Origin: Patescibacteria group bacterium
GTDB lineage: Bacteria; Patescibacteriota; Patescibacteriia; SBBC01; CAIJZX01
NCBI GenBank assembly: GCA_038065275.1
Contig: JBBTRH010000005.1
Location: 103,195 to 167,194 of the forward strand
Direction of reading: 5' to 3'
Length of the DNA: 64,000 bases
Numbering within the stretch: position 1 is the stretch's first letter; every line of letters begins with the position of its first letter. Of the stretch, positions 44,278 to 61,512 are shown one piece after another. A program made the position numbers and the translations under genes. The notes below the pieces were generated by a model. It was not told the DNA's origin. It saw nothing but the letters and a program-made list of their open reading frames with translations, and did not search any database.

Positions 44278-47200
44278 TTACTGTTGAACGATAACTTTCA
44301 GGCCGGTGTCAACCCACTGTTTGGGGTCGTAGCGGTTATTGCCGAGGATATCGGTATCGTGACAGGCCGTATCGTTGCCGCTCAAATTGTCCGTCGCGTC
44401 GTTACACCAGCCCCAGCCGTCCTTAACCTGGATTTTGATGGCGAACTGGCAGGAGGTGCGGCCGTTGGTTGTGGCGCAGTTCTTGGTGTCGCCGCGGTTG
44501 ACGGCGTAAACATGGGAGAAGATGTGCGGCTTGGCCGGGTCATTGCGCGGCGCGAAGGGGTAGGCGAAGTCGTCCTGGCCGTCGCCCCAGTCGATGCGGA
44601 TCTTGCTCAGCGGCACCTGTTCCGGATCGGCGTTGGTGTTGAACTTGAGGCCGACGCTGCCGCCGCCGCCGACGATGGTGGCGGTTGTCGCCGACCCGGT
44701 CACGAACTTGACGTTGGTCACCGCGGGCGGAATGGCGCAGTAGTCGGCTTGACTGCCGGCCGCGTAGGGCGGACGGAGGTATTTCGCCTGCGGGGCGGCG
44801 GTCGGCTTGGCGGCGTTGGTGTACGTCGTATCCGATGTGCACCGACCGGTACAAGTGTATTTTCCATTGGTCGGTCCACCAGCATACGAACATGGGTTTT
44901 CCAACTTAAAGGTCGTGTACGGTACGATTGTTCCGGACAGGCCAGGGCAGTCTTCGGGATGGTTACCGTTACACGCGGTTTGGGTAGCGATATCACACCT
45001 ACCGGTGGTGTTACCGGTCGGTTGGCAATCAGTAACGGTCGTACAGGCTATACCGATGCGATTATTCGTCGTCGACGTATCGGAACACACTTTAACGGCA
45101 ATCGCATTGCACAGGGCGGTGGTGTTTACGGGTGGCCCGGATGGCCGGCAATCCGCATCGGTGGCGCATGTTTTTCCGATTCTAGAATTTGTAACTGTAT
45201 CTGAACACGCTTTCGGTACCGGCATCGTGATCGCCGTATTTGGGGCAATCGGAATGGTACCGGCGTAGGTTATCCCGCATCGTGTCAGGGCGTCCCTCAT
45301 GGCCGCCTGACGCAACTCCGCGTTATCGACTCCGGGAACAGGCGAGACCCCCGAAACTTGAGTTGAAGCCGAACACGTTTGCGGCACCGCTGAACAGGCG
45401 TTGGGGTCGGTGTAGGCCGGATTGGCCGGGCAGATCACGGCCGGCGGTTTCCAGCCGACGAAGGCCGCCGCGTCGGGATCTTCCGAATTGGGAACCAGCG
45501 TGTACTTCCCGCCGGAATAATTCCAAATACCATGCGACTGGGCGAACAGCCGCTTGATCCGCTCTTGCGCGAAATATGAATCACCGGTCGAGAGGGTCGA
45601 GCTGAAAAGTTGCGGCCCCTTTCCCGAGGCGGCATTGCTGGTGACGCCAGCACACTCGCCAGGGTCGGGCAAACCGTTCGTCTCGTGCTTCTGGCAGTTC
45701 TGAACAAGTTGCGGCGTTGAACAATTATTGCCCGGGTCGACCGTACAGACCATCTTGTCGCACGGCCCGTTGCAGGCGTACGGCGCGCCGCCGCGCGACT
45801 GGCCCGGCGCGGAGCGATTCACATAGTTAGGCTGTTCGACCGGGAGCAACGGCCAATCGGACGGATTATCCGAAATCTGCGGTTGAAGCGCCCCGCCGTA
45901 CGGAGTCAGGTCGGTTTTGAGGGAGTAGTCAAGGTCGGGTACTTTGTAAGTCGACGAATTAATGCGGCCGGCGAAGGAACTGTTTTGACCGGACGAGTTG
46001 ACGACTTGGACAAGTTTACTGCATTTTTCTTTCATGAAGAACCTGGCTTTGTACCATAGACCTCCGGCTCCAGACGTACCGTCATCGAAAGCGGCGTGAA
46101 TATACTTCAGGAATCCAGTAGTTGAATCAAATTCAAATCGTACCGCCAACCAGTCTGCAGGATTGCCCCCTTCAATACATATCGACCATGGTTGGTCACT
46201 GTAATACCCTCCGCATCCGCCATTAGCCGCTGTGCTCTGGGCTATCTTAACTGTTCCCGGCCAGCTGTTGCCACCGATCTGGTCCTGGAAATTCAACTCA
46301 ACGAAGTAAAGGTCCTGGACATTCACCTGGGTGTCGCTACCTAAAGGTGGGTAGGCATTACCCAATGCCGCACCGGTTGATTTCACGCAAATCCCTTTCG
46401 TTGATCCTGGGTTGCCGCATGTTGAACCACCCGAGAGCTGGCTCACGATCGGAGAACAAACACAACTAAAATTGCTATTACACTCTCCCAGGTCACTATC
46501 ACCACAAATCTTGGCTTGAATATTTGTAGCCATCTCCTGATAATAACCACTTGAATAACCGCTATTCACGGGGTAGCCAGCCGCCTCCGCGCACAAGAAC
46601 AACGGCGCGCGGTCTTGGTAGCCGGCCGTTTTTTCCGAGCCGAAGATTGAGCTTTCGCCTTTGATGATGTCCACCGGCCACCAGGATAGGCAAGTGCCGG
46701 TTTGCGAATCGCGTTCCAGGCAGTAGCCTTTCCAGCCTTTGTAGACGATGCCGTTCGGATCGGCGTAGTCGCAAGACGGCGAGTCGTTCTTCGGATACAA
46801 GCGGCAGGAGGGGGTGATGTAGTTGGGGTTGGTGTTGACCTGCAGGATCGGCTTGATGATCACGTCGTCAACCTGGAACTTGATGCCGCAGGAGGCTTTG
46901 TCGGCGCAGACGAAAGCCAGCCGGGTGGCGCCGCTCATACCTTTAATCGGCCCGATCGTCACCCGTTGCCAGGCGGACGTCGTCGGCACGTCAACGTAGG
47001 AATTGGTGGTGACGCTCTTAGTACTCGAACAGGTGCCCGGCGCGACGCACTCGCTGTCGGCTGAGCAGGCGCGGTTGAGGTCGTTACTGCAGACCTGGAC
47101 CTTGTCGTTGACGGAGAACTTCGTGTAGCCGCCGTGTCCGAACTGCATCCGCACGACCGGATTGCCGCCGTCGGCTTTGATCCGCGCTTCGGCGTAGTAG

Positions 47201-48969
47201 TATTCCGACGGCGCGGCGGTGAAGACGTTCGAAGCGGCGCCGGAGAATGGCGCGTCGATATTCTGATTGGTGCACGTTCCCGCCGGCGCCGGTGTAGCGC
47301 AATCAGTCGCTTGGGTAGCAACGGTACAGACCTTCGCTGAGCTGTTTGAACAGCGCAGGTCTTGAAATTGCGTAATCGGCTCGACGACGAGGACGTGGTT
47401 CGGGCCGCTGTCCCGATCTTCAAAATCAACGCGGATGGCCTCGGGCGGGGTAACGCCGGCCGGCACGGCGGACCACGGATCGACTTCCGGCGCGCGGTAT
47501 TCGAAGTCGCCGTTCTTGATCTGCGTCTCGCCGCCGATTTGGCGCATCAACTGCCACGGCAACTGCCCCTGGATGACGTTCGCCCCGCCCTGCTGACCCC
47601 AGTCCAGGCCGGCCGCCACGTGGCCGGACAGGTCGGCCACCTTGGCCACGTCGGCCGGCGTCCGGTAGGTCAGGGTTTGGAGGGCCTTGGTCGGGGCGCT
47701 CGGGTCGGGATTGTTGCAGGAGCCGCCGCCCTGGCAGTCGGTATCGGCACTGCAAAAGCGCAACGGATCGTTATTGCACTGCCCCTGGGGGAGATAGCGG
47801 TTGCACTGCCCCTTGGTGTTCAGGCTGTTGCAGGCGCCGAGGTTCAAGCACAGGTTCTCGCCGGGGCCGCTAGCCGAAGCGTCGGTTTGGATGCTGGTGG
47901 CGCAGGTCAGCCACAGGTTACAGCCGCGGTCGTTGCGGACTTTGAGGATGGTGTTGGCGTTGCACCGCGGCCAGGACGAGGAGCACCGGGCCGCGGCCGG
48001 GGAGATGAAATTTCCTTTGCTGTCGTAACAGGACGATTCGTTGCACTGGGTCGGCGCGTCGTTGAGCGGCGTGTCAATCGAGCACTCCCCGCTCGTCGCG
48101 CCGGAGCGGCACGTCTCTCCAGCCTGACAGGTATAGCCGCACTGGGTACAGTCCTTAATCAGTTGGCCGGCGGACGAACAGTATTGCGTCCCCAGACAAC
48201 TGCCGATATCGACCGTGGTGCCGCCGCTCGAACAGGAGCCGGTGGCAAAGACGTGGTCAGACGAGCTTAAACTGGTGGTCAAGGTCAGGTCGCCGGTGGT
48301 GAAGGTGGCGTTATTCGCGCCGGTCGCCATCAGGCGGTAGTGGTACTTAGTATCCCGATTGAACGGCGTTTGGGTGGCGGTCGGAATGCGTAGCGAACGG
48401 AAGGCGTCGCTGGCCGTCGCTTCGGACGCGCCGGCGGCGTAGTCGGTGAAGTTGAGCTGGCCGGCCGCGTCCCAGCGAACCTCGACCGTGGCCGGTTTGG
48501 TGGTCGCGAAGTAGACGGAGCAGTACCGGTCGACGCAGTCGGTGCGGATGCGTTCGATGATCAGCAAACCCGAATCGCCGCTGGCGGTGGTAAAGGTCCG
48601 GTCGGCGCTGGCGGTCAGCATCTCGTTGCCGGCGGCGGGGAAAATCTGAATGGAAAAGTGGTAGGTGGTGCCGGGGTTGAGGCCGGAGACGGTGACGCTG
48701 TCGTTGCCGGCCGGATCAGCCAGCGATTTCTTCGGCACCAGCCGGCCGTAGGCGGTCGTCGGCCCGTAGGCGACCTGATAGCGCAAGCCGCCGGTGGCGG
48801 AACTGGTGTAGCTGAAGGACAGAGTGGCGTTGGTGGCCGAGGTAATGACGATATTGACGGCGGTAATGGTGGCGCTGGCCGACGTCTGGGCCAGCGAGGA
48901 GCGGCCCAATACCAGCACCGCGGCCAGCAGGCCGAAAATGACGGTCAACGATGTCAGGCGGGCGCGCAT
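44278..48969 (-). CDS. giant Cys-rich surface protein with N-terminal FN3-like domains (1563 aa)
   Basis: Signal peptide MRARLTSLTVIFGLLAAVLVLG. TATLSFSY...YHFSIQ FN3 signatures. Dense CxxC patterns. Confidence 0.6.
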   Translation of the reverse strand: MRARLTSLTVIFGLLAAVLVLGRSSLAQTSASATITAVNIVITSATNATLSFSYTSSATGGLRYQVAYGPTTAYGRLVPKKSLADPAGNDSVTVSGLNPGTTYHFSIQIFPAAGNEMLTASADRTFTTASGDSGLLIIERIRTDCVDRYCSVYFATTKPATVEVRWDAAGQLNFTDYAAGASEATASDAFRSLRIPTATQTPFNRDTKYHYRLMATGANNATFTTGDLTLTTSLSSSDHVFATGSCSSGGTTVDIGSCLGTQYCSSAGQLIKDCTQCGYTCQAGETCRSGATSGECSIDTPLNDAPTQCNESSCYDSKGNFISPAAARCSSSWPRCNANTILKVRNDRGCNLWLTCATSIQTDASASGPGENLCLNLGACNSLNTKGQCNRYLPQGQCNNDPLRFCSADTDCQGGGSCNNPDPSAPTKALQTLTYRTPADVAKVADLSGHVAAGLDWGQQGGANVIQGQLPWQLMRQIGGETQIKNGDFEYRAPEVDPWSAVPAGVTPPEAIRVDFEDRDSGPNHVLVVEPITQFQDLRCSNSSAKVCTVATQATDCATPAPAGTCTNQNIDAPFSGAASNVFTAAPSEYYYAEARIKADGGNPVVRMQFGHGGYTKFSVNDKVQVCSNDLNRACSADSECVAPGTCSSTKSVTTNSYVDVPTTSAWQRVTIGPIKGMSGATRLAFVCADKASCGIKFQVDDVIIKPILQVNTNPNYITPSCRLYPKNDSPSCDYADPNGIVYKGWKGYCLERDSQTGTCLSWWPVDIIKGESSIFGSEKTAGYQDRAPLFLCAEAAGYPVNSGYSSGYYQEMATNIQAKICGDSDLGECNSNFSCVCSPIVSQLSGGSTCGNPGSTKGICVKSTGAALGNAYPPLGSDTQVNVQDLYFVELNFQDQIGGNSWPGTVKIAQSTAANGGCGGYYSDQPWSICIEGGNPADWLAVRFEFDSTTGFLKYIHAAFDDGTSGAGGLWYKARFFMKEKCSKLVQVVNSSGQNSSFAGRINSSTYKVPDLDYSLKTDLTPYGGALQPQISDNPSDWPLLPVEQPNYVNRSAPGQSRGGAPYACNGPCDKMVCTVDPGNNCSTPQLVQNCQKHETNGLPDPGECAGVTSNAASGKGPQLFSSTLSTGDSYFAQERIKRLFAQSHGIWNYSGGKYTLVPNSEDPDAAAFVGWKPPAVICPANPAYTDPNACSAVPQTCSASTQVSGVSPVPGVDNAELRQAAMRDALTRCGITYAGTIPIAPNTAITMPVPKACSDTVTNSRIGKTCATDADCRPSGPPVNTTALCNAIAVKVCSDTSTTNNRIGIACTTVTDCQPTGNTTGRCDIATQTACNGNHPEDCPGLSGTIVPYTTFKLENPCSYAGGPTNGKYTCTGRCTSDTTYTNAAKPTAAPQAKYLRPPYAAGSQADYCAIPPAVTNVKFVTGSATTATIVGGGGSVGLKFNTNADPEQVPLSKIRIDWGDGQDDFAYPFAPRNDPAKPHIFSHVYAVNRGDTKNCATTNGRTSCQFAIKIQVKDGWGWCNDATDNLSGNDTACHDTDILGNNRYDPKQWVDTGLKVIVQQ

Positions 48970-48973
48970 GGGA

Positions 48974-51148
48974 TCAGTTGGTGCAAAGATTGGAAATATT
49001 ACAGCTGGTGATGCGGTAGTGATAGAGCTTGTCGGGCTGGAGGTTCGTCAGGGTGACGCGGTGATCGGTGTAATTTGCGCCGGCATCCGTCGGGTTGGCG
49101 TCATCATACCGCTCGCCGAGCGAGTAGGTACAGGGCACCGACGTCCCGTCGGGACGGGTTTTTTGCTGGCTGCAATCGGTGGTCAGGCCGTATTCGACTT
49201 CGCTGGTCGAGGCTTCGTCGGTCTGCCAGTGAATCGTCGCTTGGCAGGTGCCGCCCGGACCGGTGCAGGAGATATTGATGGCTTCGGGTTCGCAAATGGT
49301 CTGCCCGGGGAGACACTGGACTTGCGGCGGCGAGGTGTCGTTGTTGACGGTCACCGTCACGCTGGTCCACGGCGAGGTAGTGGCTGGGCCGGCCGTCGAA
49401 ACCGCCTGGGCGGAGAGGACATAGTCGCCGTTCGGGACTGACCCGCTCATGGTGTTCCACTGGTAGGAGAACGGGCACGATGAAGCGGCGGAAGGTCCAC
49501 CGCCGGTACAGCTTTGCGAGAGCGGCGGACGATTCGCGGTGGTGCCGCAACTGTTGGCGTCGGTGCAGGTGCGGGACTGACTATTGTTCGTACAGGCCGA
49601 CCATGCGCTACACGACCAGTTTTCGGTGCATGACGAGGTACAGGTTTGGGTGAGCGCCGGTCGATTCGTCGTCGTGCCACAGCTATTCGCGTCAGTACAC
49701 GTCCGACTTTGGGAATTATTGACGCAGGTCGACCAGTTGCCGCACGACCAGTTCTCCGTACAACCCGGAATGGCGGCCAAGGAAGCGCCGACATCCGAGC
49801 CGCCGCTCCCGGCGCCCCGCGCCGGCGAGCCGGATTGCAGGGTGAAATCTCCGGCTCCGGCGTTAACGAACAAGGGGTCGGCTTCACGGGAATTTGCGTC
49901 ACTGCCGGTAGTCGAGCGCCAAGCTGATAGGCTTCCGCCTTGGTTGCCGAAAGAAACCGCGCCGGCGCGATTGTGGAAAAGGTTGTAGTCGCCGCTGTAC
50001 CGGTTATTAGCCCAGCCGTCGTAGGAAAAAACAGCGGAGCCGCTGTAATCGAAAATGTTGTTCGTCCACGTGTCAGCCGGCGGACCGTCGCGGTAGGACA
50101 TGGTTTGTATCCCTTGATTTGACCCCCGCACAACGAAGGTGTTGTGATCAAAGGTATTGCCGAAACCGCCGACAATTGATCCGGCCGTTTGGCCCCAAAA
50201 GATGTTGTTAGAAAAAGTGTTATTGCCGCCGATGGCTTGAAAATAGGTCGCGCCGGCCGCGTCGGATCGGAAGGTGTTGCGGATAAAAGCGTTGTTGGCG
50301 GGAAACGTTTTGTCGACGTTCCCGGAAGCAATCCGGATCGCTTCCTGACTGTTCGTCCAGAAGGTGTTGTTTTCATAACGACCGTTGTCGGATTCGTCCC
50401 GCATATACAGCCCGATCGTGGTGCCGGTGGAGCGAATCGAATTACCAGTAAAAACGGTGTGCGTGGCGCAACGGATGCGAACCGAGGCGGTCGCTTCCGG
50501 CGGCGGGTCGTTGCGAGTGTTCAGGATGGTATTATTCGTCACCTGAGCGTCCAGGCGCGGGCAGGGGTGGACGTTGTCGCCCCAAATCTCCAACAATATT
50601 TTTACATTGGTCGACCCGCCGGTAATGGTGTTATTGGTCACGATCGGACGCAACGGGTGCCAGCCGATGGTATCGCTGTCATTGACCTGAATGCCGCCGG
50701 CCCCGACTGTGTTATTTTGAATGACCGCGTCGTCGCTCCCGAGGATGTAGATGCCGTTGACCGTCAAATTCTGGAAAGTGACGTGATTGACGGTGTTCCC
50801 ATACGTTCGCACGCTGGAACTTGACGTAAAATTACTAACCGTCACATTGCTTGGCGCGCCGGACCCGTAATCGACCACTTCGAGCGCGTCACCACCCGTC
50901 GTGGTAATCGTTTTTCCGTTGCCGTCGAACGTCAGATTGGTGACGTTCCCGCGAATGGAAAAACACGTACTACTACTGCTGACGTCATTGGCTAACCGAT
51001 AGTTCCCGTTATTGGTAATATTTTGACAGCCGGTCAGTGAGATGACGGTTTGCGCCGAGCTCCGGGTGACAAAGAAACCAGCCACGGCCACGCCGGCCAA
51101 GATCAGGAATAGGCGCGGTTGAAAGAATGACTGATGGCTGGTATTCAT
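48974..51148 (-). CDS. secreted right-handed beta-helix (pectate-lyase/NosD-like) repeat protein with tandem Cys repeats and C-terminal FN3
   Basis: Repeating NNT..N/GN motifs. Duplicated 40-aa CTENWSC..SQSRTCTDANSCGTT unit. Confidence 0.6.
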   Translation of the reverse strand: MNTSHQSFFQPRLFLILAGVAVAGFFVTRSSAQTVISLTGCQNITNNGNYRLANDVSSSSTCFSIRGNVTNLTFDGNGKTITTTGGDALEVVDYGSGAPSNVTVSNFTSSSSVRTYGNTVNHVTFQNLTVNGIYILGSDDAVIQNNTVGAGGIQVNDSDTIGWHPLRPIVTNNTITGGSTNVKILLEIWGDNVHPCPRLDAQVTNNTILNTRNDPPPEATASVRIRCATHTVFTGNSIRSTGTTIGLYMRDESDNGRYENNTFWTNSQEAIRIASGNVDKTFPANNAFIRNTFRSDAAGATYFQAIGGNNTFSNNIFWGQTAGSIVGGFGNTFDHNTFVVRGSNQGIQTMSYRDGPPADTWTNNIFDYSGSAVFSYDGWANNRYSGDYNLFHNRAGAVSFGNQGGSLSAWRSTTGSDANSREADPLFVNAGAGDFTLQSGSPARGAGSGGSDVGASLAAIPGCTENWSCGNWSTCVNNSQSRTCTDANSCGTTTNRPALTQTCTSSCTENWSCSAWSACTNNSQSRTCTDANSCGTTANRPPLSQSCTGGGPSAASSCPFSYQWNTMSGSVPNGDYVLSAQAVSTAGPATTSPWTSVTVTVNNDTSPPQVQCLPGQTICEPEAINISCTGPGGTCQATIHWQTDEASTSEVEYGLTTDCSQQKTRPDGTSVPCTYSLGERYDDANPTDAGANYTDHRVTLTNLQPDKLYHYRITSCNISNLCTN

Positions 51149-54100
51149 TGGCAGGTGAATTGCGTATCGAGCAGCGGCATTGACGCGCCCGGGGCGGTAA
51201 TTTTGAAGTTGATTCGGCTCATCGGATTATTGTCCGCTCCGACGCCGGTGACGGTCACCGTGCCCCGGACTTCGGTGCCGCCGGCCGGCTGGGTGATGGA
51301 AATAGTCGGCGGGGTGTTGTCCGGCGCGGCCGAGGTGGTGAAGCGCAACGGTCCGCCGGCATCGGTTTTCAGAGTTGAAACGTTGCCGGTTGGGTAGGCC
51401 TGGTCTCGCGAGGTCAGGCCGTAGTAATAGGTAGTCAGCGGATTTAGGCCGGTGTAGGTAATGACGTGACAACCGGCGGTGCAATTGGCCGCGTCGTACC
51501 TGGTGCCGACGATGTTGGCGTCGTTTTGCGTCGCGTCGGGGTAGATGGTAATGCGCGAATCGGCCAGCTCATTGGTCTGCCAGGAAATCGTCACCTGATC
51601 GAAGCTGACGCTGGCCGTCGGGTTGGTAATCGTCGGCGGAATAATGTCGGGCATGACGCTGAGCGCGGCCGTGGTTTGTTTTTGGATGACGTCCGGCAGG
51701 GTGCCCGACGTGCCGGTCAGGGTCAGGGTAAAATTGCACGGTCCGGGCGGCGCACATTGGACCGGACTGCCGGCCGTCGCGTTGATCGTCACGCCGGTTC
51801 CGCCGCCGCCGGCCGGCACGAAATCATTGGGGCTGATGACGGCGGTGATGTTCGGGTCGGTTGACGTCAGGGCGAGGTGGACGGCGCCGGTAAAGCCGCT
51901 CAAGGCGGTGACGGCGGCGTTGAAGAACGCCGGCACTCCGGAACCCGCCACGACCGACCCGGCGGCGCTCCCGAGGGTCAGATCGAAGTCCGGCGGCGGC
52001 GTGGCCGTCAAGTAAACGGTCACGGAGTGCGTCAGCGTGCCGTCGTTAGCGGTCACGATAATCGGCGTATCCGTCGCCACGGTGACGGTCGTCGCCAGCG
52101 TCAAAATCGAGGTGGCGGTGCCGCCGCCGCTGGGGTTGCCGCTGAGGGGGGTGGAGGCGGCGGTCACGCCGGCCGGCAAGGCGCCGGTGGTCCAGCTCAG
52201 GCCGGGCGGTGAATTGTAGACGTAGGTCGACGAACCGGCGACATTCAGCGTAAAGCTGGCGCTTTGCCCGGCCACCACGGTCCGGCTGACCGGGACCGCG
52301 GACAGCGTGAAGTCCGGCGTGGCGGTCAGCGACAAGGTGACTTGCGCGGTCTTGGTGATGCCGCCGGAAGTTCCGGTCACGGTCAGGGTGTACGGTCCGC
52401 CGCCGGCGCCGGGGGTTGAAGTGACGATCAGCACCGAGTAGTCGGCGGTGACGCCGGCCGTCAAGGCGACGCCCGGCGACGACATCAAGGCGGTCAAACC
52501 GGTCGGCGGGCTGGTCGGCGTCAACCCCACCGTTCCGATGAAACCGTTCACCGCCGCCACCTTGATCGTGAAGAGCGCCGTCGTGCCGGCCGCGACCGTT
52601 CGGCTGGCCGGCGGGACGGGGGTTAGGTCGAAGGTCGGGACGTTGTAGGTGACGTTGGTGCTGGCCGAGCCTTCGTTGCCGGCCCGATCGGTCGCAAACG
52701 CCACCAGCGTGTTCAAGCTCGGGTTAAGCGCCAGCCCGCTGGCGGACCAACTGACGGCGGCGCTCGGAACGATGGAGACGTTCGAACGCGGCCCGCCGTT
52801 GACCGAGATTTCAATCTTCGACACTTGATCATTATCGTTCGCCGCGCCGTTAGCCGTCACGGTTGGCGTGGTCACGGTCGCCGGAGCGCTGATCGTCACC
52901 GTCGGTACGGTGTTGTCGAAAATAAACGCCGCCGTGGCGGGAGTCGAATTATTCGTGCCGTCGTTGGCTATGGCGGTGATCACATGATTCACCGCTCCGG
53001 TCAGCTGGGCGCAGGGCAACGACACTGACCACGAGGTCGTGCCGATCGCCGTCACCGGCGGGTTGCCGTCCAGCGTCACGGTCACGTTCTGGACCGCGCC
53101 GGGCGCCGTGTCAGACGCGGTGCCGGTAATCGTCAGCGGACAGGTTTTGTTGAACGGCGGGATGGGGTTGATGGCGATGGTGGGGGGGATGGCGTCGAGC
53201 GCGGGGGTGGTGAAGGAACCGCCAAAGGCACCTGAGCCGACGCTGGAGCCGAAAGATTCAGCGGCGTAGTAATATGTTGTATTTGCCATCAGGTTACTGA
53301 TAACCGGACTATGGCTGTAGGATGCGCTTCCGCCAGACCACGCTATTGCGCTGGAGGTCGGCATAGCGTATTTTGCGATACCTGTATTAAGACCGGTTGC
53401 TATCAGCTCATTTCCACGAACAACAGTAATACCAATGATACCTCCAGGAAGCAAGACTCCAGGATTACTATCAAACACCGCCGAGGGAATGGCTGTAGCT
53501 TTATAGTGTAGTATCGAACCCTCTGTTGCTGCCCAAAATTCATTAGCAGCCACCATGTGTATTTTTTCGATACGAACTGCGCCGGTGTTAACAAACACCG
53601 GTGCATTCCAAGTTGCTCCGTTATCTGGCGTAGTTATTTTATAGAGAAGACCGCTCGTAGAAAGGCCACCTATCCAAATGGTTTGACCATCGAAAGTGGC
53701 CACCGTAGAGAAGCTGTCTGAGATTGAAGTGATAACCGGCGTCCAGGTACACGCGCCTGGGTTCAGTATGTTCTCGCAGTGAATAATCGTTCCATTTCTT
53801 CCCACCGCCCAAACATCGCGGTTGCCAGATACCGTCATGGCATTCAACGACGTTGCACCGCTGTAGACTTGGTTCCAAGTCGTTCCGTTGTAATAATAGA
53901 TATACGATCCAACGCCATTATTCGGGGTTACCGAGACGACTGCCGTTGTCGACGAGGTAGCCACTATTGAAAAAACATTGTAATTCGAGGGTGACGGAGC
54001 AATAAATGGAAGCGGTACTGGCATCCAGGTTTGTCCGCCATTCGTTGACTGTAAAACAGTGTTGTTCTGTCCGGCTGCCCAAACAATTGAATCATTATAC

Positions 54101-54843
54101 GCTGAAATCGAATAAATGTAGGAGGTCGTCCCTGAGTTTTGCGCTCCCCAAACACCGGCGGGGTTGCGGTGAACGATATAGCCTTGCGTGCCACCTGCCC
54201 ACACATGCCCAGAACTCGTTGACTCGACGGATCCCAAGTGATAGCCGGAAACGAAAGGATTTGTTTCCATGGTCCAACTCGGAGGATTTGGCCCGTAGAT
54301 CACTGTTGAATCCCCCGGAAACGGCGTCGTCCAGCTTATGTTCCGTTTACAAGTAGTGGTGCATCCCGCATCGGCATCCGATGGGGTGAATTGAGGAGCC
54401 GGCCAGGTGGTGACCGGACCGACATTGACGTTATCGTACTGCGCGCCGCTCACCGCTTCGATAAAAATGTTCTGGTACGTCCGGCTGCTACGTAAGCCGG
54501 CGTAGGTTACGTTGCAGGGAGAAGATTCGCAGATACCCTGCGACAGATTCTTCCACATGGTCGGGTCGGAGAACTGGGAACCGACGCACTGCGTCGAGTT
54601 GCCGAGACAGGCATACACCTCGTAGCCCACGGCGCGGGCGGCATAGACATCGACGGTGAAACCGTCGGCCGTCGGCCGGAGATTGTCATAGCCGACAGTC
54701 AAGTCAGGACAGTTGTTGGGATAACATGGCGGGATTTCGGCTCGGACGCGTTCGGATCGGCTGAACACGAGCGTCGCCACGACCAGCGCTCCCAGCAACA
54801 GCGTGGTTTTCATCAGGTGCGAATGAGAAGACGATCGATTCAT
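51145..54843 (-). CDS. giant surface protein with BNR/YCF48-like propeller repeats and multiple Ig-like domains (1232 aa)
   Basis: BNR motifs STNGGQTW, DNGATWN. 4-nt overlap with the upstream gene. Confidence 0.6.
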   Translation of the reverse strand: MNRSSSHSHLMKTTLLLGALVVATLVFSRSERVRAEIPPCYPNNCPDLTVGYDNLRPTADGFTVDVYAARAVGYEVYACLGNSTQCVGSQFSDPTMWKNLSQGICESSPCNVTYAGLRSSRTYQNIFIEAVSGAQYDNVNVGPVTTWPAPQFTPSDADAGCTTTCKRNISWTTPFPGDSTVIYGPNPPSWTMETNPFVSGYHLGSVESTSSGHVWAGGTQGYIVHRNPAGVWGAQNSGTTSYIYSISAYNDSIVWAAGQNNTVLQSTNGGQTWMPVPLPFIAPSPSNYNVFSIVATSSTTAVVSVTPNNGVGSYIYYYNGTTWNQVYSGATSLNAMTVSGNRDVWAVGRNGTIIHCENILNPGACTWTPVITSISDSFSTVATFDGQTIWIGGLSTSGLLYKITTPDNGATWNAPVFVNTGAVRIEKIHMVAANEFWAATEGSILHYKATAIPSAVFDSNPGVLLPGGIIGITVVRGNELIATGLNTGIAKYAMPTSSAIAWSGGSASYSHSPVISNLMANTTYYYAAESFGSSVGSGAFGGSFTTPALDAIPPTIAINPIPPFNKTCPLTITGTASDTAPGAVQNVTVTLDGNPPVTAIGTTSWSVSLPCAQLTGAVNHVITAIANDGTNNSTPATAAFIFDNTVPTVTISAPATVTTPTVTANGAANDNDQVSKIEISVNGGPRSNVSIVPSAAVSWSASGLALNPSLNTLVAFATDRAGNEGSASTNVTYNVPTFDLTPVPPASRTVAAGTTALFTIKVAAVNGFIGTVGLTPTSPPTGLTALMSSPGVALTAGVTADYSVLIVTSTPGAGGGPYTLTVTGTSGGITKTAQVTLSLTATPDFTLSAVPVSRTVVAGQSASFTLNVAGSSTYVYNSPPGLSWTTGALPAGVTAASTPLSGNPSGGGTATSILTLATTVTVATDTPIIVTANDGTLTHSVTVYLTATPPPDFDLTLGSAAGSVVAGSGVPAFFNAAVTALSGFTGAVHLALTSTDPNITAVISPNDFVPAGGGGTGVTINATAGSPVQCAPPGPCNFTLTLTGTSGTLPDVIQKQTTAALSVMPDIIPPTITNPTASVSFDQVTISWQTNELADSRITIYPDATQNDANIVGTRYDAANCTAGCHVITYTGLNPLTTYYYGLTSRDQAYPTGNVSTLKTDAGGPLRFTTSAAPDNTPPTISITQPAGGTEVRGTVTVTGVGADNNPMSRINFKITAPGASMPLLDTQFTCQ

Positions 54844-54847
54844 AACA

Positions 54848-57800
54848 TTACTGCCCCCGGAAATTCAGGGCCGGATTAGTCGTATCGTTGAACGGCCGAC
54901 AGCCGATAGCGGCGTCAACTTTGCCGTTGCAGGAGCCGGCGTTCGTTTCCAGCGACTGGCGCAGGTAGTAGTACGGCCGACAACCGGGCAGGCCGAGGCT
55001 GGGCTGGGTGTCGCCGCCGATGCAGAAGTGAACGCCGTCGGCGTCTTGGCAATCCAGGTCGTTCTGGCAATTCTGGCCGGCGCGTTCGCCGTCGGCGCAT
55101 TGCGTCCGCCGACAGGCGCCGTCGACGTAGTCCGGACTGCCGCCTTGCGACAAGGATAGCGGGCATTCCGAGCGGCAACCGGCCGGGTCGGTCGGGTCGC
55201 GGTATTCGGTACACCCGTTCTGTTCGGCCGGACAACTGCCGGCCAGATAGACGCAACTGTTCCGATTGACATCGGTCGGATTGTAACAATCACTGTCGTT
55301 ACTGCATGCTCCGACGGCGTACCGACCGTCGACGGGCGAGTAGATTTGACCGATCCGCGAGGCGTCTCCGGCGCAGACCCCGCCACCCGGACATTCATCA
55401 GCCGCCGCCGGCAACATCGTACAGGCTCGGCCGTCTCGGTCGCCCCCCACGCAACGCGGACTGCACGACGGCCCGACCGGTCGCCCCACCAACGGCGGGG
55501 TGACGATCGGGCAGGGTTGGCTGGTGCCGGTGATGTACCATTGGCCGTTGCCGTCGCCGCCGGTGCGGTAATCGCAGACTCGCTGTCCGGGGTCTTTGAA
55601 GTAGGCGGCCGTGCCGTCGGCGGTGGTGTAGACCTGGCAGGAGAGTTCATTGTTTTCGCACAAGTCCCGGCTATGGCGATCGGGATCGTTGATCAGGTAC
55701 TGCGACAGATAGCTGATGAGCTTCTGGTCCGGTCCGTAAGTCGGGCGGCCGACCGCTTCGCAACCTTTAGCCGCCGCCGGACAATAGACCGCCGGGTTGT
55801 TGACCAGGGTGTAGATGGTGTCGGCCGGCGTGGTGACGCCCTTGACCGTCTGGGCGAACGGGCTGGCGCTGTTGCGGGTGTCAATCAGCGCTTCACAGCC
55901 GACCACCTGTTCCGAGCAGAGACGGGTGAACGAGGTTAGGTAGTTGGTCGTCCCGCGGCGATCGCGGTAAGCCGCGCAACCGACTTCGGCGTCGGAGCAT
56001 TGCGGCAAAGTGGAACTGATTAGGTAGACATGGTCGTTAACCTCGGTCAGCGCCACGTTGTCGACGTAGGCTGAGCCGCCAGCCAAGAGCAAAGCCAGCT
56101 GAGCGTCCGACCGGTCTTGATTAACCAATATCGGACCGAGGGTATAGCTCCGCCATTCCGGCCCCTTGGGGGTGATGTTATCGTTCCAGGTGGCGGCCGC
56201 GGTACCCGGGAAAGTAGTTTCGTTGGCTAAACCGGCGTTAAAGGGCTGGAAAGTATTGCCGTTCAACCGGCCGAAGGCGGCGGTGATCGTGGCTGGTGTC
56301 GAGCTCGCCGCCGCCGCCGTGAAGGTCAGCAGGTAGGTGCGGCCGGCGTAGATTTGGTTGGCCAGGGCCGCGTTTTTGGTCACAGCCGCCGATGACGGAC
56401 CGGCGGCGTCGATCAGCATCGAGTGGCCGTTGAGGTTGACCGACGCGTTCGAAGCCGTGCCGCCGTTCCAATTAGCGGTGCCGTTGTTTTCAAAATTGTC
56501 GCTGAATACTTGGCGGGTGGTGCCGCTGGCGTTGCCGGTGTAGGCCCGACAACCGGCCGCGGCGGCGCCGCAAGTCAGGTTTTCCTTGGTCGACAGGTAG
56601 TAGATATCATTCTGATGGGCTGGATCAGACTGGTCGATGGTATTGCGGTAGGGGTGACAATCTTCGGTAATGGAAACTGTTTTGGCTCGCAGGCGGTAAT
56701 AAATATTCAGCGCTGAGTCATAGTACTGCGAGCAGTCGGCGTTCTTGGCCAGGTCGCCGGCCGCGCTACAGTTGACTTGGGCGGCGCTTACCGTCGCGTC
56801 CGTATCGTTGCAGACCGGATTGTCGGTCACCGTGCCAATCTTCAACGACGTGCATGGTGCGCCGTCGGGGCGATTCGACTTGACCAGGTCATATGAACGC
56901 AGAACGTAGCCGAGTTTCGCGTCGCCGACCCAGGTATAATACGTGGCCGATTCGACCGGCGACTTGATTTGGGCGGGTTTCAGGCATTGCTTGACCGACT
57001 TGAAGTACTCCTTTCCTTCCCCGCCTTTTGCCACTTCATCGAGGTTGGTGTACTCTTCGCACCCGACGTCGGCGGCCGAGCAGATTTGACCCTGCGGGAT
57101 AACGACATTGACTGCTCCGCCGGAGCGGGGCGGCACGCCGGTAATCGGTTCGAGCTGGTAGGTCGCGCAGCCGACTTTATCGGCGCTGCAGCGGTTGCTG
57201 TTGCGCACCTGGCCGTTGATGTCGCTCCCGCCGGCCAGCGGCGTGTAGGTTTGGCAACCGACGTCGGCGACCGCGCATTGCTGGCGCTGGCCGTTGAGGT
57301 AGACGGCGTTGATCGTGCCGTAGTCGCGGTACGGCGACGGACCGGCCGACTCTTCAAGTTGGGCGCTGTCGATGATAAGTTCCTTGTCGGCGCAGTCGTT
57401 CAGCCGAATGGCCGCTTTCAGGTCGAGGGTCGGCGACGTGAACGTTATTTGATCCGTCCCGGGGATACTCAACGTCACGTCGTACGTATCCCACTCGGTC
57501 GTGACGGCTATGTTCGGCTGGTCGTTGCCCGGTACGCGCGGCCGATCACCCTGGGTAGTATCCGGTTCAAGCATCAGGGTCGCCGCGCAGGCGGTCTGGG
57601 CCTTGGCGCGAACCGACAGCGTGAATGAGCGTTCATACAGGTCGTAACCGGTATAGACGACCTGGGTTAAGGTAGCGGACGGAGTGTCGGACAGAGCGCC
57701 GGCCAGACTAACCGCGGCCGTGTTATTGGCCGTAAAGGCCGAGTCGCTGGCCGTGACCGGGAGAGCGCCGAGCGTCAGACTTTTGGCCCAACCGGCGTAG

Positions 57801-60532
57801 TTGGCGGAGAAGCCGCTGTCGAGCGGCTGATCGAAAGTTTCAAATCCGCTGTTGGCCAGGAGGTTCGTGCCGTCGGCGGTGCGCAAGAACTGGCGACAGC
57901 CGGCTTGCGATGACTGGCACTGTTGGACCTGGCCGGTGAAGTTGATAGTGTCGGGGTCGGAGCCGGGGCAGGTCTGGGTGATCGGGTCGTAACTCGTCGT
58001 GCTACAGTATTGCGTACAGCCGGCGTTATCGGCGTTGCAATTCCGGCTATCGAGCGTATTCGCCAGATAGGCTACCTGTTGGCCGACCGGATCGATGTAA
58101 GCGGTGCAACTGCTGTTCTCGGCCGAACACTGCGTGCCGTCGAACTTAAACTGCTGGCGCTCCTGGACGCAGTAGCCGAACGCTTGGCAACTGCCGTCTT
58201 CATTTTCGGCGATGCAGGACTGCGCGTCGGCGCAGGTGTCGCTGTTCCGCTCGATCACCCAGCGTCCGACGTCGGGGCGGGGGTTATTAGTAGTCGAGGC
58301 GACGCAATTCGGGGCTCCAGTATCCTGGCAGTCGCTGTTCGGCCCGCACGTTACGCCGGCCGGGATGACGTTGCCGGTCGTGGCGTCGACGTTGTTCTGG
58401 TCGCAGACGAATTCCTTGGCGATGATTTCTTCGCCGGCGCCTTGGCGGCGGCAGTACGTCTGCGGCGCCTTCAGGACCCAGTTCGGGTCGACCAGGCCGC
58501 AATACGGACTGGCGCCGCAAGTGATGGTGGCGTTATTTTCATCAACACCGCAGTCGTTGTCCTGCTGGCAAGATTGGTCGGCTTTAGTACCACGGGTGCA
58601 AACCGCATTTGTCTTGACGCGTGACGACACGACGCACGTATTCGTCGGATCAACATCGGTCGGGCACTGAGTATTCGTAGTGCAGTCGTTCCCGCCGACC
58701 GTACAGGTTTTTTTCACTTCCTCCTGACCGCACATGTTGTACCGGCTGGTCAAGTAACCGAGGCTGAGATCGCGGTGGTCGAAGAGCTGGCTGTACTTGG
58801 CCGCCAGTTCCCACCCGACCGGCGTGACCCGGAACTTGCGCAGATACTGCAGGGCCCGGAACGGATAGCCGTCGCGCGGCTCGACGCCGTTCTTGTCGAA
58901 CCCGAACGTCTTTTGCGGATCCAACAAACGCTGATCGAGCGCTTCTTTAACCGTCATCGTCCCCTCGATCGCCTGCCGGAACTGGGCGTCGATCAATCCG
59001 TTGCTGGACAATTGGTCGGTAATGCTGATTTCGTTCCGGCCGGGATCGCCGGTGGTAATCTGCGCTTGGCCGAGCTTGGCGTACAGGAGCTGGGCCCCGG
59101 CCGTTCCGGTCGGGCCGCCCGATCCGAAGACCAGCTGGCCGATGGTTGACCGGGCGTTCGACGGCCCCTTGCATAAATCCGGGTTCAGCCCGCACTTGCT
59201 CTTGAAATAATTGGCCAGCGCCTTGCCGACCGGACTGTTGAGAAACGAGGCGATGCCCTTAAGGACGTCGGCCACCGATGTTCCGGTATAAGTAAACTGG
59301 CCGCTCTGGCCGATGAAGGGGATGCCGAGCAAAGTGGAAGCGGTCGACGATGGCGATTTTACTTCTTCGCTGACCTTGGTCGTGACCGGCAGGACGTTCG
59401 GGTTGAGGTTCGTTTGTTCGCCGGTGACGACTTCCTGGATCTTCGCCGTCATTGCTCCGGCGGCGGTCAGAAACTGGCCGAGATCGCTCTTGTCGAGGGA
59501 TAAAGCGTTGGCTAACGCCGCCGGCGCCTTCCGCGGATCGGCGTTTTGGACGGCGCTGAAGATGTCGGTGGCGGTGAACCCGCTGATGGCGTTGGTGGCC
59601 GCGGTACCCTGCGCCTGGCAGGATTGATAACACTGGTTCGTCTCGGCTTGGGCGGCGGCTCCTTCATTATAAAAGGCCTCCTCTTGGCGTGTGTCACAGT
59701 CATCTAGTGTCATCGAGCCCTCAGTATATGAAGCCTCGGGATCGATAATCCAGGTCGTAGCGGTGCCGTTCGTCCGGCCTTCAGTCACGCCGCGGCAGAC
59801 GAAGTCCGTCGCTGTTTTAGCTTCCTTGGTTAGAAGCTGTAGGGTTCCGCCGGGTCCCAGCATGAAAAATTTCAGTTTCAAAATTTTCGCCTCATGGTCA
59901 TTGCGGGTCATGTTCATGAGCATTTCCGGTAAGTCGGTTTCTTTTACTTTTGTCCAATCTATTGAATCGATCGCGGCGGTCGATATGCTGAAGTTGTTAT
60001 CGCAATCCTGTTTGCACTGGGTCGTCAATCCGCCGACGACTTGCCCGGCTTGAGCGCGCAGGAGTCGTGTAATCAAAAATTTTCCGCGGGCGCCGCTGAA
60101 GGACGTGCCCGGCCCGGTTTCGCCGGTCGCGCCGCGCGAGAAGTCGTCGATAAAGTCGCCGGCCGCGGCGTTGGAGACGTTCTTGAAAAACTTCTTGGGG
60201 TTGGTCAGGAACAGCGGTTTCTGGCCCGGTCCGACGGTGGCCAGCTGGGTTTGAACTTCCCTAAGCAGTCGCGCTTGAAAAATTTCCAATGAGCTCTTGA
60301 AAGCGATATCGCCGACGGTTTTATATTTGCTAGCAACTTTTTTTACAACATCATCAATTTTTTTGGCAACCTTCGCAGGAATGTCGACGATAATTTGAAC
60401 TAGTGTAGGTGGGACAACCTGAACGGCAAATTGTGCTTTAGCCGACTGCGGGAAAACCGCCAACAGCGCCACCGACAGTAGCGTCAGAGTGGCAAGGGCT
60501 AACCGATATCGTCTCGAGGACGGTCGGGACAT
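54848..60532 (-). CDS. giant Cys-rich surface protein (about 1894 aa)
   Basis: Probable start MSRPSSRRYRLALATLTLLSVALLAVFPQSAKAQ (ATG 60532), 4 nt after the upstream stop. Confidence 0.6.
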   Translation of the reverse strand: MSRPSSRRYRLALATLTLLSVALLAVFPQSAKAQFAVQVVPPTLVQIIVDIPAKVAKKIDDVVKKVASKYKTVGDIAFKSSLEIFQARLLREVQTQLATVGPGQKPLFLTNPKKFFKNVSNAAAGDFIDDFSRGATGETGPGTSFSGARGKFLITRLLRAQAGQVVGGLTTQCKQDCDNNFSISTAAIDSIDWTKVKETDLPEMLMNMTRNDHEAKILKLKFFMLGPGGTLQLLTKEAKTATDFVCRGVTEGRTNGTATTWIIDPEASYTEGSMTLDDCDTRQEEAFYNEGAAAQAETNQCYQSCQAQGTAATNAISGFTATDIFSAVQNADPRKAPAALANALSLDKSDLGQFLTAAGAMTAKIQEVVTGEQTNLNPNVLPVTTKVSEEVKSPSSTASTLLGIPFIGQSGQFTYTGTSVADVLKGIASFLNSPVGKALANYFKSKCGLNPDLCKGPSNARSTIGQLVFGSGGPTGTAGAQLLYAKLGQAQITTGDPGRNEISITDQLSSNGLIDAQFRQAIEGTMTVKEALDQRLLDPQKTFGFDKNGVEPRDGYPFRALQYLRKFRVTPVGWELAAKYSQLFDHRDLSLGYLTSRYNMCGQEEVKKTCTVGGNDCTTNTQCPTDVDPTNTCVVSSRVKTNAVCTRGTKADQSCQQDNDCGVDENNATITCGASPYCGLVDPNWVLKAPQTYCRRQGAGEEIIAKEFVCDQNNVDATTGNVIPAGVTCGPNSDCQDTGAPNCVASTTNNPRPDVGRWVIERNSDTCADAQSCIAENEDGSCQAFGYCVQERQQFKFDGTQCSAENSSCTAYIDPVGQQVAYLANTLDSRNCNADNAGCTQYCSTTSYDPITQTCPGSDPDTINFTGQVQQCQSSQAGCRQFLRTADGTNLLANSGFETFDQPLDSGFSANYAGWAKSLTLGALPVTASDSAFTANNTAAVSLAGALSDTPSATLTQVVYTGYDLYERSFTLSVRAKAQTACAATLMLEPDTTQGDRPRVPGNDQPNIAVTTEWDTYDVTLSIPGTDQITFTSPTLDLKAAIRLNDCADKELIIDSAQLEESAGPSPYRDYGTINAVYLNGQRQQCAVADVGCQTYTPLAGGSDINGQVRNSNRCSADKVGCATYQLEPITGVPPRSGGAVNVVIPQGQICSAADVGCEEYTNLDEVAKGGEGKEYFKSVKQCLKPAQIKSPVESATYYTWVGDAKLGYVLRSYDLVKSNRPDGAPCTSLKIGTVTDNPVCNDTDATVSAAQVNCSAAGDLAKNADCSQYYDSALNIYYRLRAKTVSITEDCHPYRNTIDQSDPAHQNDIYYLSTKENLTCGAAAAGCRAYTGNASGTTRQVFSDNFENNGTANWNGGTASNASVNLNGHSMLIDAAGPSSAAVTKNAALANQIYAGRTYLLTFTAAAASSTPATITAAFGRLNGNTFQPFNAGLANETTFPGTAAATWNDNITPKGPEWRSYTLGPILVNQDRSDAQLALLLAGGSAYVDNVALTEVNDHVYLISSTLPQCSDAEVGCAAYRDRRGTTNYLTSFTRLCSEQVVGCEALIDTRNSASPFAQTVKGVTTPADTIYTLVNNPAVYCPAAAKGCEAVGRPTYGPDQKLISYLSQYLINDPDRHSRDLCENNELSCQVYTTADGTAAYFKDPGQRVCDYRTGGDGNGQWYITGTSQPCPIVTPPLVGRPVGPSCSPRCVGGDRDGRACTMLPAAADECPGGGVCAGDASRIGQIYSPVDGRYAVGACSNDSDCYNPTDVNRNSCVYLAGSCPAEQNGCTEYRDPTDPAGCRSECPLSLSQGGSPDYVDGACRRTQCADGERAGQNCQNDLDCQDADGVHFCIGGDTQPSLGLPGCRPYYYLRQSLETNAGSCNGKVDAAIGCRPFNDTTNPALNFRGQ

Positions 60533-60536
60533 GGAA

Positions 60537-61361
60537 TTACTGGCTGGTTTTGATTGCTTCTTGAAAAATTTGTCGGAGAGTGGCGTCATCGACCGCGTTG
60601 AGGGTGGCCTGGTCGAGGCCGTTCTGAACAAGGAGCTGGCGGATTTCGGCCGGCGTCAACTGTTGAAGCTGGGACAGCGCCGGCGGCGTGGACGCGTTGG
60701 TATTGGCGATTGATGGGACGGCGGTATTGGCGTTTTCGGCGGAACCGTTGGTGTTAGCGGTTGCATTAGTATTAGTCGCCGGCTGGCTCTTGACCACCTG
60801 CCGGTAGATGCCGAGCAGGCTGGCGTCATCCGTTTGATCGAGCGTCGACTGCGACACTCCGGCCGAAGCCAGGGCGCGGCGGAGGAATTCGGGGGTCAGC
60901 TGGCCCTGGGCGTCGACCGGCGAGGTCAAGAGGCGGAATCCTTCACAGACCTTCCCCTGCGGACAGTTCGGGTCGGTGCCTTTGTCGATTTCCGCTTGGT
61001 CCGACGCGCCGTCGCCGTCGGAGTCCTTCAGGTAGGGGCTGGTGCGGGTTTTGTACAGCTCGTCGTAGTCGGAGATGCCGTCGCCGTCGGTGTCTTTCTG
61101 TTTCAACTTCTCCAGTTCAGCCACGGCGGCGACGGCGACCGCGTTCGCATTGGCCGTCGGCTGGGGCCTTGCCGTAGTGGCGACGATGCCGCGGTAGATG
61201 AGCCAGCCGCTCGCCCCCAGCGCCAGTAATCCGATGATGACAATCGACCGGTAGGCGCGCGGCGTATCAAGCGCTCCGACCGGCGTCGAACCGGACGTAA
61301 CTCCAACCAGACCGTCGGAAACTCGTCGGCCCAGGTTTTTCAACCATGCTGGGGTGAGCAT
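60537..61361 (-). CDS. membrane-anchored protein with thrombospondin type-3-like Ca-binding repeats (DTDGDGISDYDE, DSDGDGASDQAE)
   Basis: First gene downstream of the 61479..61512 promoter. Confidence 0.5.
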   Translation of the reverse strand: MLTPAWLKNLGRRVSDGLVGVTSGSTPVGALDTPRAYRSIVIIGLLALGASGWLIYRGIVATTARPQPTANANAVAVAAVAELEKLKQKDTDGDGISDYDELYKTRTSPYLKDSDGDGASDQAEIDKGTDPNCPQGKVCEGFRLLTSPVDAQGQLTPEFLRRALASAGVSQSTLDQTDDASLLGIYRQVVKSQPATNTNATANTNGSAENANTAVPSIANTNASTPPALSQLQQLTPAEIRQLLVQNGLDQATLNAVDDATLRQIFQEAIKTSQ

Positions 61362-61478
61362 TATTTTACTTTATGTATGTGAGAGAAAAAACTTGCTCGA
61401 GCCGACTCGAGCCGAGGCGACGTTATCCAGAAAAATGCGGATCTATCCACAAGGGAAAGGGGCGAAAAAACTGTCTTT

Positions 61479-61512
61479 ACTATAGCACAGAAGACCCCTA
61501 TCGTCAACTGAA
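61479..61512 (-). promoter_or_regulatory. strong sigma70-like promoter TTGACG-N17-(TG)cTATAGT (minus strand) heading the surface-protein/T4SS supercluster
   Basis: Minus-strand GTTGACGATAGGGGTCTTCTGTGCTATAGT. Overlaps the 3' end of rsmA. Confidence 0.45.

Follow-up and report, generated by a model that had tools for sequence, protein, structure and literature searches.

Which part of the Patescibacteria type IV secretion system (T4SS) touches the host cell? Southlakia epibionticum, the only member of the group that is genetically tractable, cannot do without the system, and reviews call the role of the Patescibacteria T4SS completely unknown. The question is raised here by a 64-kb window, the whole stretch of Patescibacteria DNA that was analysed, in which five minus-strand open reading frames (ORFs), g1 to g5, lie head to tail from 61361 down to 44278, just as an earlier note made from the sequence had placed them, and run into a gene for an extended VirB6 (g6). 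Two of the five products, g2 and g5, are the halves of one giant Cys-rich protein, and a giant gene of this family stands beside virB6 in all 76 recovered related loci, contig permitting, which makes it a concrete candidate for coupling the machine to the host. We consider it rather probable that the region opens a chromosomal Patescibacteria-type (Gram-positive-like) T4SS locus as an eight-gene operon and that the giant proteins dock the T4SS on the host. What is new is the giant-protein module of the T4SS, in a lineage where the function of the secretion system is an open question.

Patescibacteria-type T4SSs, which are related to the MPF-FATA type, have been described by Quinonero-Coronel et al. 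2025 (PMC12102498) and Wang et al. 2023 (PMC10633639), and on its predicted gene content the locus is one of them. It shares with the published systems a VirB4 with what may be its separate TrsD/TraC-like N-terminal piece, PrgI/VirB3, VirB6 and VirB2-like pilins, as well as a chromosomal position with ksgA nearby and the recG and comF context of class ABY1 (PMC12102498). In common with them, it has neither a relaxase nor a coupling protein in the window, where no ORF scanned matched a Pfam family of either kind. The same phylum-wide survey detected no adhesins such as PrgB. Neither the genes for giant Cys-rich proteins described below nor their TSP3 anchor and conserved promoter are mentioned in it; such genes would have been left there without a profile match. 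No prior description of the giant Cys-rich T4SS-linked family, or of such a linkage in candidate phyla radiation bacteria, was found in the literature.

The related loci were collected by a pattern scan with one genome per species. The order major facilitator superfamily (MFS) transporter, ksgA, promoter, g1, giant gene and virB6 was found in all loci whose contig reaches that far, with the g1 orthologue always immediately upstream of the giant gene, and it was also found around a cluster representative that matches the profile of the g2 N-terminal domain (N-domain) just at E = 4e-27. Full-length g2 orthologues are 40-67% identical and the named ones belong to Candidatus Kerfeldbacteria; the source is a Kerfeldbacteria-like, ultrasmall and probably host-dependent member of Patescibacteria. 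Among the loci numbered L027-L079, 'uncultured Gammaproteobacteria' is the title of many contigs, and 'Pirellulales' or 'Bdellovibrionales' that of single ones. The locus on them is nevertheless of the Patescibacteria type, with its genes in unchanged order, so that these titles look like placeholders or wrong bin labels.

A giant protein in two pieces

In about 40 related loci, a single ORF of 2,400-4,500 aa occupies the interval between the TSP3 gene (g1) and virB6. These fused ORFs align colinearly with the window proteins, g2 coming first and g5 residues ~320-1563 following, and g2 and g5 are thus the two halves of one giant. That they might be paralogues was rejected: BLASTP shows no similarity between the two, which follow each other along one protein. 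When a neighbour-joining tree was built from the g2 core, the split loci grouped as a single clade within the fused ones; of the loci labelled 'split' that fall elsewhere, a few are cut short by a contig end and one or two may have been split independently. The tree, which was midpoint-rooted, suggests that the fused form is ancestral. Nothing in the fused giants corresponds to the signal peptide and the FN3 domains at the N-terminus of g5. Since the two are fused elsewhere, g2 and g5 can be expected to act as one assembly, according to the Rosetta-stone argument.

The descriptions that the earlier note had given of the five proteins agree with the Pfam results. The first gene indeed encodes a TSP3-repeat protein (TSP3_bac E 5e-11, 42.6 bits vs a cut-off of 25), the supposed Cys-rich protein of about 1894 aa has exactly that length from its ATG, with 81 cysteines, and the 1232-aa BNR/Ig protein matches PSII_BNR at 27.1 vs 27 bits and Big_7 at 33.3 vs 24.1 bits. 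The 724-aa beta-helix protein matches Beta_helix at 45.1 vs 25.9 bits and has an FN3-like domain besides, its duplicated Cys modules being found as CTENWSC..WS.C.NNSQSRTCTDANSCGT at residues 463-500 and 507-545, and the 1563-aa FN3/Cys-rich protein matches fn3 at 29.5 vs 25 bits and contains 75 cysteines.

After its signal peptide, g2 has a mostly helical N-domain of ~570 aa without a known family, a Cys-rich region, a jelly roll resembling a carbohydrate-binding module (CBM), a stretch of hairpin motifs of the form C-x6-C-x2-[YFL], another domain of CBM_4_9-like type and a last Cys-rich region; in all, three Cys-rich regions, 11 such motifs and two CBM4/9-like jelly rolls can be counted. Cysteines make up 4.3% of g2 and 4.8% of g5, g3 and g4 having 17 and 25 of them, respectively. 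Nearly all of the g2 cysteines are invariant among 27 orthologues, as one would expect of disulfide-bonded extracellular proteins, and conservation, taken as majority fraction, is 0.62-0.70 in the Cys scaffolds and 0.52-0.55 in the CBM-like parts. Residues 1342-1427 score 24.4 bits against CBM_4_9, just under the curated cut-off of 25.9; g2 orthologues carry precomputed PF02018, and the fused giant of locus L030 reaches 27.9 bits. A profile of the 27 orthologues run against PDB sequences gave just a weak CBM match, to laminarinase 16A (E 0.019).

The g2 family is large: with a profile of the N-domain, 882 clusters (50% identity) were retrieved, 592 of them at E <= 1e-10, and nearly all are proteins of 1,500-3,600 aa with the domain at the N-terminus. 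An AlphaFold2 model of this domain built from 12 sequences was poor, with a predicted local distance difference test score (pLDDT) of 51, and Foldseek found nothing below E = 1 for it; its top matches, phage core proteins and alpha-pore-forming toxins, are meaningless at that pLDDT and were discarded as candidates for the fold. In g5, an NGDFE-type CBM-like domain, a conserved core (residues 690-800 strongly conserved, ~0.7-0.8), variable Cys-rich repeats and a PKD-like C-terminus (DWGDG) could be distinguished. The model of g5 residues 639-1563 is usable (pLDDT 71, predicted template modelling score 0.58) and beta-rich, with no PDB or viral (BFVD) match below E 0.001 and generic Ig/FN3 sandwiches only, so that a phage tail-fibre-like origin is unsupported. 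Pfam searches at E up to 1, run with the Cys-rich segments on their own, with the core of g5 and with the extension of VirB6, returned nothing usable. In the largest fused giant (locus L062, 9458-23086; 4542 aa), there is a von Willebrand factor A (VWA) domain that the window proteins do not have, and the family accordingly acquires different binding modules in different lineages.

Between the halves lie g3 and g4. In split-type loci, this slot usually holds one g3-type protein, sometimes with BACON or glucodextranase-B domains, and it is empty in a few; fused-type loci have no g3-type protein, and the g3 gene is an insertion typical of the split clade. By contrast with that pattern for g3, g4 sits at the split slot in the window alone and at that position in none of the 76 related loci; its family is common among Kerfeldbacteria genomes, and g4 can be regarded as an accessory gene. 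Some of the genes found in the middle of related loci were first candidates for g4-like proteins; Pfam shows them to be of the g3-type propeller/Ig kind, with only an FN3-like domain in common with g4.

The g4 family leads back to the secretion system by another route. In the related locus L081, the last gene of the T4SS cluster, P0281 (10001-13021), encodes a beta-helix, an Ig, a VirB2-like pilin and an SLT-like domain in one protein. Its beta-helix part, with one Cys module, is 42% identical over g4 residues 17-598 and is followed by a Big_7 domain, and its pilin and SLT-like region is 40% identical to the window protein encoded at 28398-29942, which has a short Cys-rich N-terminal part where P0281 has the beta-helix. 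This fusion ties the beta-helix module physically to a T4SS pilin. Together with the split/fusion pair of g2 and g5, it gives interaction predictions that need no culture.

The remaining protein of the run, g1, precedes the giant as a predicted calcium-binding membrane anchor. The hydropathy scan places its N-terminus in the cytoplasm, followed by a single transmembrane (TM) helix, and among 67 orthologues the helix is kept in 66 and one or two TSP3 motifs in 65, the two C-terminal helical repeats being retained as well.

Export and proposed contact with the host

The secreted nature that the earlier note had assumed for all five proteins is borne out in so far as g2-g5 begin with signal peptides of the Sec type and g1 is anchored in the membrane near its N-terminus. 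Signal peptides were judged by a hydropathy scan and by reading the N-termini, not by a dedicated predictor; the predicted cleavage motifs in g2-g5 are AKA/Q, VRA/E, SSA/Q and SLA/Q. Both g2 and g5 are thus predicted to leave the cell via the Sec pathway and not through the T4SS. The role in adhesion or host contact is suggested by the types of domain and by gene linkage: since they share a conserved promoter with the channel gene, the giants and the exported proteins linked to them are the best candidates for the host-touching part of the T4SS.

It is reasonable to suggest the following course of events. The extended -10 promoter on the ksgA stop codon would drive g1, g2, g3, g4, g5, virB6, g7 and g7b in this order. 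Once outside the cell, g2 and g5 would remain associated as a large rigid surface structure, which g1 and/or the extended VirB6 could hold at the membrane beside the channel and the VirB2-like pilus. Its CBM-like, PKD-like and Ig-like modules might, along with g3 and g4 as exchangeable proteins, bind, and perhaps cut, glycans of the host cell wall, and this binding would dock the T4SS onto the host cell. Co-transcription, physical association, adhesion and glycan specificity are all, in this scheme, what we infer. A bolder proposal, which we put forward only tentatively, is that the giant family and the TSP3 anchor form the extracellular organelle, missing so far, with which the Patescibacteria T4SS touches the host, and a new class of T4SS-associated surface structure; in one clade, the split would have opened an exchangeable host-range cassette slot for the lectin- or depolymerase-like g3 and g4.

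Surface proteins encoded beside a VirB6-like gene have counterparts in two known systems. On the enterococcal conjugation plasmid pCF10, PrgA, PrgB and PrgC, surface proteins that bring about contact between cells, are encoded upstream of, and co-transcribed with, PrgH (VirB6-like), PrgI (VirB3-like) and PrgJ (VirB4-like), and the window likewise places surface-protein genes upstream of the virB6-like gene of a monoderm T4SS. However, there is no sequence or domain similarity to the Prg proteins; the proteins of the window are 5-10 times larger, Cys-rich and without LPXTG, and their system is chromosomal and apparently not conjugative. In the F system, the Cys-rich, Sec-exported TraN and the extended VirB6-like TraG hold the partner cell, and here, too, a Cys-rich exported protein is encoded beside an extended VirB6, although no TraN or TraG Pfam match was found and the window proteins belong to a monoderm envelope, are much larger and have CBM-like and PKD-like domains. 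The extended VirB6 proteins of Rickettsiales share with g6 at least five TM helices and a large hydrophilic domain, whereas the very large extracellular mass here is a separate Sec-exported protein and not part of VirB6. Membership in the pCF10 or F systems is not claimed; the likeness would be a functional resemblance without homology. In Gram-positive T4SSs in general, surface adhesins play a cell-contact role (PMC12102498).

Several points weigh against docking by the giant proteins. The giants have no Pfam match to PrgB/aggregation-substance adhesin domains, and no Pfam or NCBIfam match to the TraN family domain was obtained. Inspection of the C-termini revealed no LPXTG with a hydrophobic tail, and thus neither a sortase signal nor any other recognisable wall anchor. 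Because the g2 N-domain and the g5 core are without a known fold, the term adhesin rests on the accessory domains, some of which score at or just below their Pfam cut-offs (CBM_4_9 and PSII_BNR, with the values given above). The association of g2 with g5 outside the cell is assumed. As for the operon, transcription could end early or be attenuated at two U-run hairpins that separate the promoter from g1, and sequence alone leaves room for promoters within the long coding regions.

Among the alternatives to docking, the one that survives best takes the giant as a structural part of the secretion apparatus, such as a conduit spanning the wall or S-layer, a pilus base or a tip complex, which would replace the outer-envelope parts that monoderm T4SSs lack and would not primarily be an adhesin. 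The position of the giant gene directly before virB6, with very short gaps in nearly all relatives, would suit such a part, and so would the highly conserved core with its invariant cysteines and the protein of a relative that joins the beta-helix module to a pilin. Moreover, wall-spanning components are not known from monoderm T4SSs, and pilins are an unusual feature of the Patescibacteria systems. Nevertheless, lectin-like and Ig-like modules are typical of binding proteins, the great variation in size and domains (1,700-4,500 aa; VWA in some) would be unusual for a channel component, and no pore-like or ring-forming fold was recognised. We regard a structural part as rather unlikely, while on present data it is inseparable from adhesion.

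Promoter and probable extent of the transcription unit

The promoter that the earlier note had seen ahead of the run, TTGACG-N17-TATAGT with a TGC extension, is present at 61507..61479 and kept in relatives. Generic promoter-like matches are in no excess in the region (5 vs 6.1 in shuffles); this site is the sole 10/12 match with a TG extension there, and nothing else in the 64-kb window fits the strict pattern TTGACN-N13-15-TGN-TA[TC]A[AG]T. Of the 65 related loci that contain the ksgA-g1 spacer, 58 have the same promoter in it, the distance from -35 to -10 measuring 17 nt in 49 loci and 18 nt in 9. When both strands of 1.58 Mb of related DNA were scanned, 58 of the 62 strict matches lay directly upstream of a g1 orthologue, and none lay within or between giant genes. 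By its conservation the predicted promoter is real, and it could be used as a metagenome marker for the start of such loci.

Linkage of the five genes by 4-nt gaps or overlaps, as the earlier note had it, was measured at 4, 4, -4 and 4 nt, and the run does flow into the VirB6-like gene, with 4 nt between g5 and g6. What needs correction is the run of five as the whole unit, which comprises eight genes instead and extends through virB6, g7 and g7b, the full set of junctions from g1 to g7b being 4, 4, -4, 4, 4, 3 and -4 nt. From this arrangement, a transcription unit of eight genes and ~21.4 kb is likely, ending at a 24-nt palindrome (40074-40097) that has no trailing T run. The smallest member, g7b, is taken as real because a 58%-identical ORF occupies the matching position in L081. 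In the public record of that relative, the counterpart (L081 1297-1572) was missed by the gene caller and an opposite-strand ORF is annotated instead. As T4SS genes continue downstream on the same strand, the eight-gene unit would be the first half of a T4SS super-locus of ~33 kb.

In relatives the genes are packed as tightly, with median gaps of 7 nt between g1 and the giant, 0.5 nt between g2 and g3, 2 nt between g3 and g5, 1 nt between g5 and virB6 and 25 nt between a fused giant and virB6, the ksgA-g1 spacer having a median of 60 nt. The earlier note had allowed for internal promoters or terminators that split the run. Within it, however, the gaps are too small for either, no strict promoter occurs, and terminator-like matches are at chance level (25 vs 21.1 in shuffles). 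The run might still consist of several units, if internal promoters or attenuation at the leader hairpins regulated the giant genes and virB6 separately. The two U-run hairpins point in this direction, as do one weak 9/12 promoter-like site on the minus strand within g3 (52860..52831) and the sheer length of a 21-kb transcript. Against this stand the absence of intergenic gaps, the lack of any strict promoter in the run, in the window as among the 62 sites of the related loci, the chance frequency of terminator-like matches, and the facts that the GC-rich leader hairpin is unconserved and that leaders in relatives mostly measure just 0-40 nt. Separate regulation therefore seems improbable.

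The same evidence bears on the view that the giants are general envelope or nutrient-scavenging proteins, for example an S-layer-like coat or glycan-degrading enzymes, whose adjacency to the T4SS is an inherited gene order near ksgA. Beta-helix and BNR folds do occur in polysaccharide-active enzymes, the locus is chromosomal with vertically inherited synteny with housekeeping genes (MFS transporter, ksgA), and ksgA is common near virB4 in Patescibacteria (PMC12102498). Nonetheless, junctions with virB6 that overlap or measure 1-4 nt, and the placing of a promoter before the whole set, argue for co-expression, the pilin fusion links the g4 family to the T4SS pilus, and no catalytic family was detected at the curated threshold, which leaves this view with little probability. 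That the giants are secreted effectors or toxins against the host cell is very improbable: large secreted proteins are encoded beside a secretion system whose role is unknown and for which effector delivery has been proposed in the literature, but their Sec signal peptides point to the general pathway and not to the T4SS, Pfam found no toxin or enzyme domain, no immunity-like gene is adjacent, and one copy per locus with a conserved core is unlike polymorphic toxins. Taken together, the signals for Sec export, the absence of toxin domains and the structure of the operon weaken the envelope, separate-regulation and effector explanations.

Leader, remaining T4SS genes and neighbouring features

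Positions of all features are collected in Table 1.

Table 1. Features of the T4SS locus and its surroundings in the window
Feature	Position	Strand	Description
Promoter	61479..61507	-	TTGACG-N14-TGC-TATAGT, extended -10, near-consensus; -35 overlaps ksgA stop codon
Leader	61362..61478	-	117 nt; two small hairpins, each with a U run (61451..61436; 61412..61395)
g1	60537..61361	-	274-aa type II membrane protein; TM helix ~39-57, two TSP3 calcium-binding repeats, two C-terminal helical repeats
g2	54848..60532	-	1894 aa, secreted; predicted N-terminal half of ancestral giant; ATG start, the mechanical ORF list extending to a TTG inside g1
g3	51145..54843	-	1232 aa, secreted; Ycf48/BNR-type beta-propeller, Big_7 Ig and FN3-like domains
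g4	48974..51148	-	724 aa, secreted; right-handed beta-helix (Pfam Beta_helix), two TSP1-like Cys modules, FN3-like domain
g5	44278..48969	-	1563 aa, secreted; residues ~320-1563 predicted C-terminal half of ancestral giant
g6 (VirB6/TrbL)	41190..44273	-	Extended, 1027 aa; Pfam TrbL E 1e-6, 29.1 vs 25.9 bits
g7	40491..41186	-	231 aa, no TM helix or known family, 3 nt past virB6; 39%-identical orthologue after VirB6 in L081
g7b	40201..40494	-	Unannotated 97-aa ORF, GTG start overlapping g7 stop (GTGA); 58%-identical ORF at the same place in L081
Palindrome	40074..40097	-	Perfect, 24 nt, CCCCCTTCTGAATTCAGAAGGGGG; likely unit end, putative terminator
Second promoter	39943..39971	-	Weaker, before g8; TTGCGA-N17-TATAAT, TGC extension (TGCTATAAT)
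g8	38421-39920	-	
PrgI/VirB3	37746-38237	-	Pfam PrgI E 3.8e-10, 40.6 vs 27 bits
TraC/TrsD-like	37009-37740	-	TraC_F_IV E 0.0095, below cut-off; L081 gene at the same position carries PF26593 TraC-like
VirB4 ATPase	35097-37025	-	P-loop_TraG E 2.3e-28, AAA_10, DUF87
g11, g12		-	Two genes between VirB4 and VirB2-like pilin
VirB2-like pilin	31205-32299	-	PF18895 E 1.8e-9
Beta-propeller protein	29946-31229	-	
Pilin plus SLT-like protein	28398-29942	-	PF18895 E 2.8e-8
PilM	7037-8275	-	Type IV pilus cluster
PilB/T2SSE	3156-4910	-	Type IV pilus cluster
PilT-like ATPase	1678-2748	-	Type IV pilus cluster
PilC/T2SSF	295-1506	-	Type IV pilus cluster

The length of the leader is a trait of the subclade to which the window belongs, most relatives having 0-40 nt. 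The direct repeat that the earlier note reported in it does exist, as two copies of CTCGAGCCGA on the plus strand, though a repeat is only part of what is there: because CTCGAG is palindromic, the repeat is at the same time a 7-bp GC-rich hairpin with a T run behind it (61412..61395), and it is specific to the window. The leader hairpins may serve ksgA termination or transcription attenuation; since the ksgA stop lies within the -35 element, any ksgA terminator must fall in the leader. A conserved attenuator was ruled out, the GC-rich hairpin being missing in the closest relatives, and so was a riboswitch or other known RNA, as there was no Rfam match and the fold was no better than that of shuffles (z-score -0.04).

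Apart from the promoter and the first ~20 transcribed bases, conservation in the leader is confined to one block, a DnaA-box-like 9-mer, TGTGGATA[AG], located 27 nt past the -10 element, at the same offset in the window and in its three closest relatives, the loci L004, L005 and L006, and at +40 in L007. The window leader contains two such motifs, 61443-61451 and 61423-61431, which are 20 nt apart and are two of the seven one-mismatch DnaA-box matches in the 64 kb. As a sign of an origin, these boxes were rejected, with 7 matches vs 6.5 expected in the window and a GC skew that keeps its sign there. T4SS loci of this type often lie near dnaA and the origin, according to the published survey (PMC12102498). 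In CP181398.1 (L030), the only complete chromosome among the relatives, the locus occupies 1,276,716-1,302,079 of 1,309,938, about 8-33 kb from the end of the circular record and hence near its start, a position that would fit closeness to the origin if the record starts at dnaA.

The g6 protein has ~9 TM segments in residues 30-365, followed by a hydrophilic C-terminal extension of ~650 aa. The remaining T4SS genes span 28398..39920 on the minus strand, in a gene order that matches L081. The two window pilins are paralogous, being 48% identical in the pilin core, and both have a Cys-rich extension. At the C-terminus of the one encoded at 28398-29942, lytic-transglycosylase-like motifs (GLGQF ... 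AAYNQG) were read by eye, with no profile in support.

Past the T4SS genes lie recG, tRNAs and a comF-like gene. The mechanical recG ORF (26068-28395) overlaps at its 5' end with a tRNA-Arg (26083-26159), and the true recG start must therefore be further downstream. The same window also contains a type IV pilus cluster (295-16786, minus strand), in which PilM is followed by four ORFs without a family match, of 1590 aa (8467-13239), 433, 551 and 342 aa, that may be pilus-associated.

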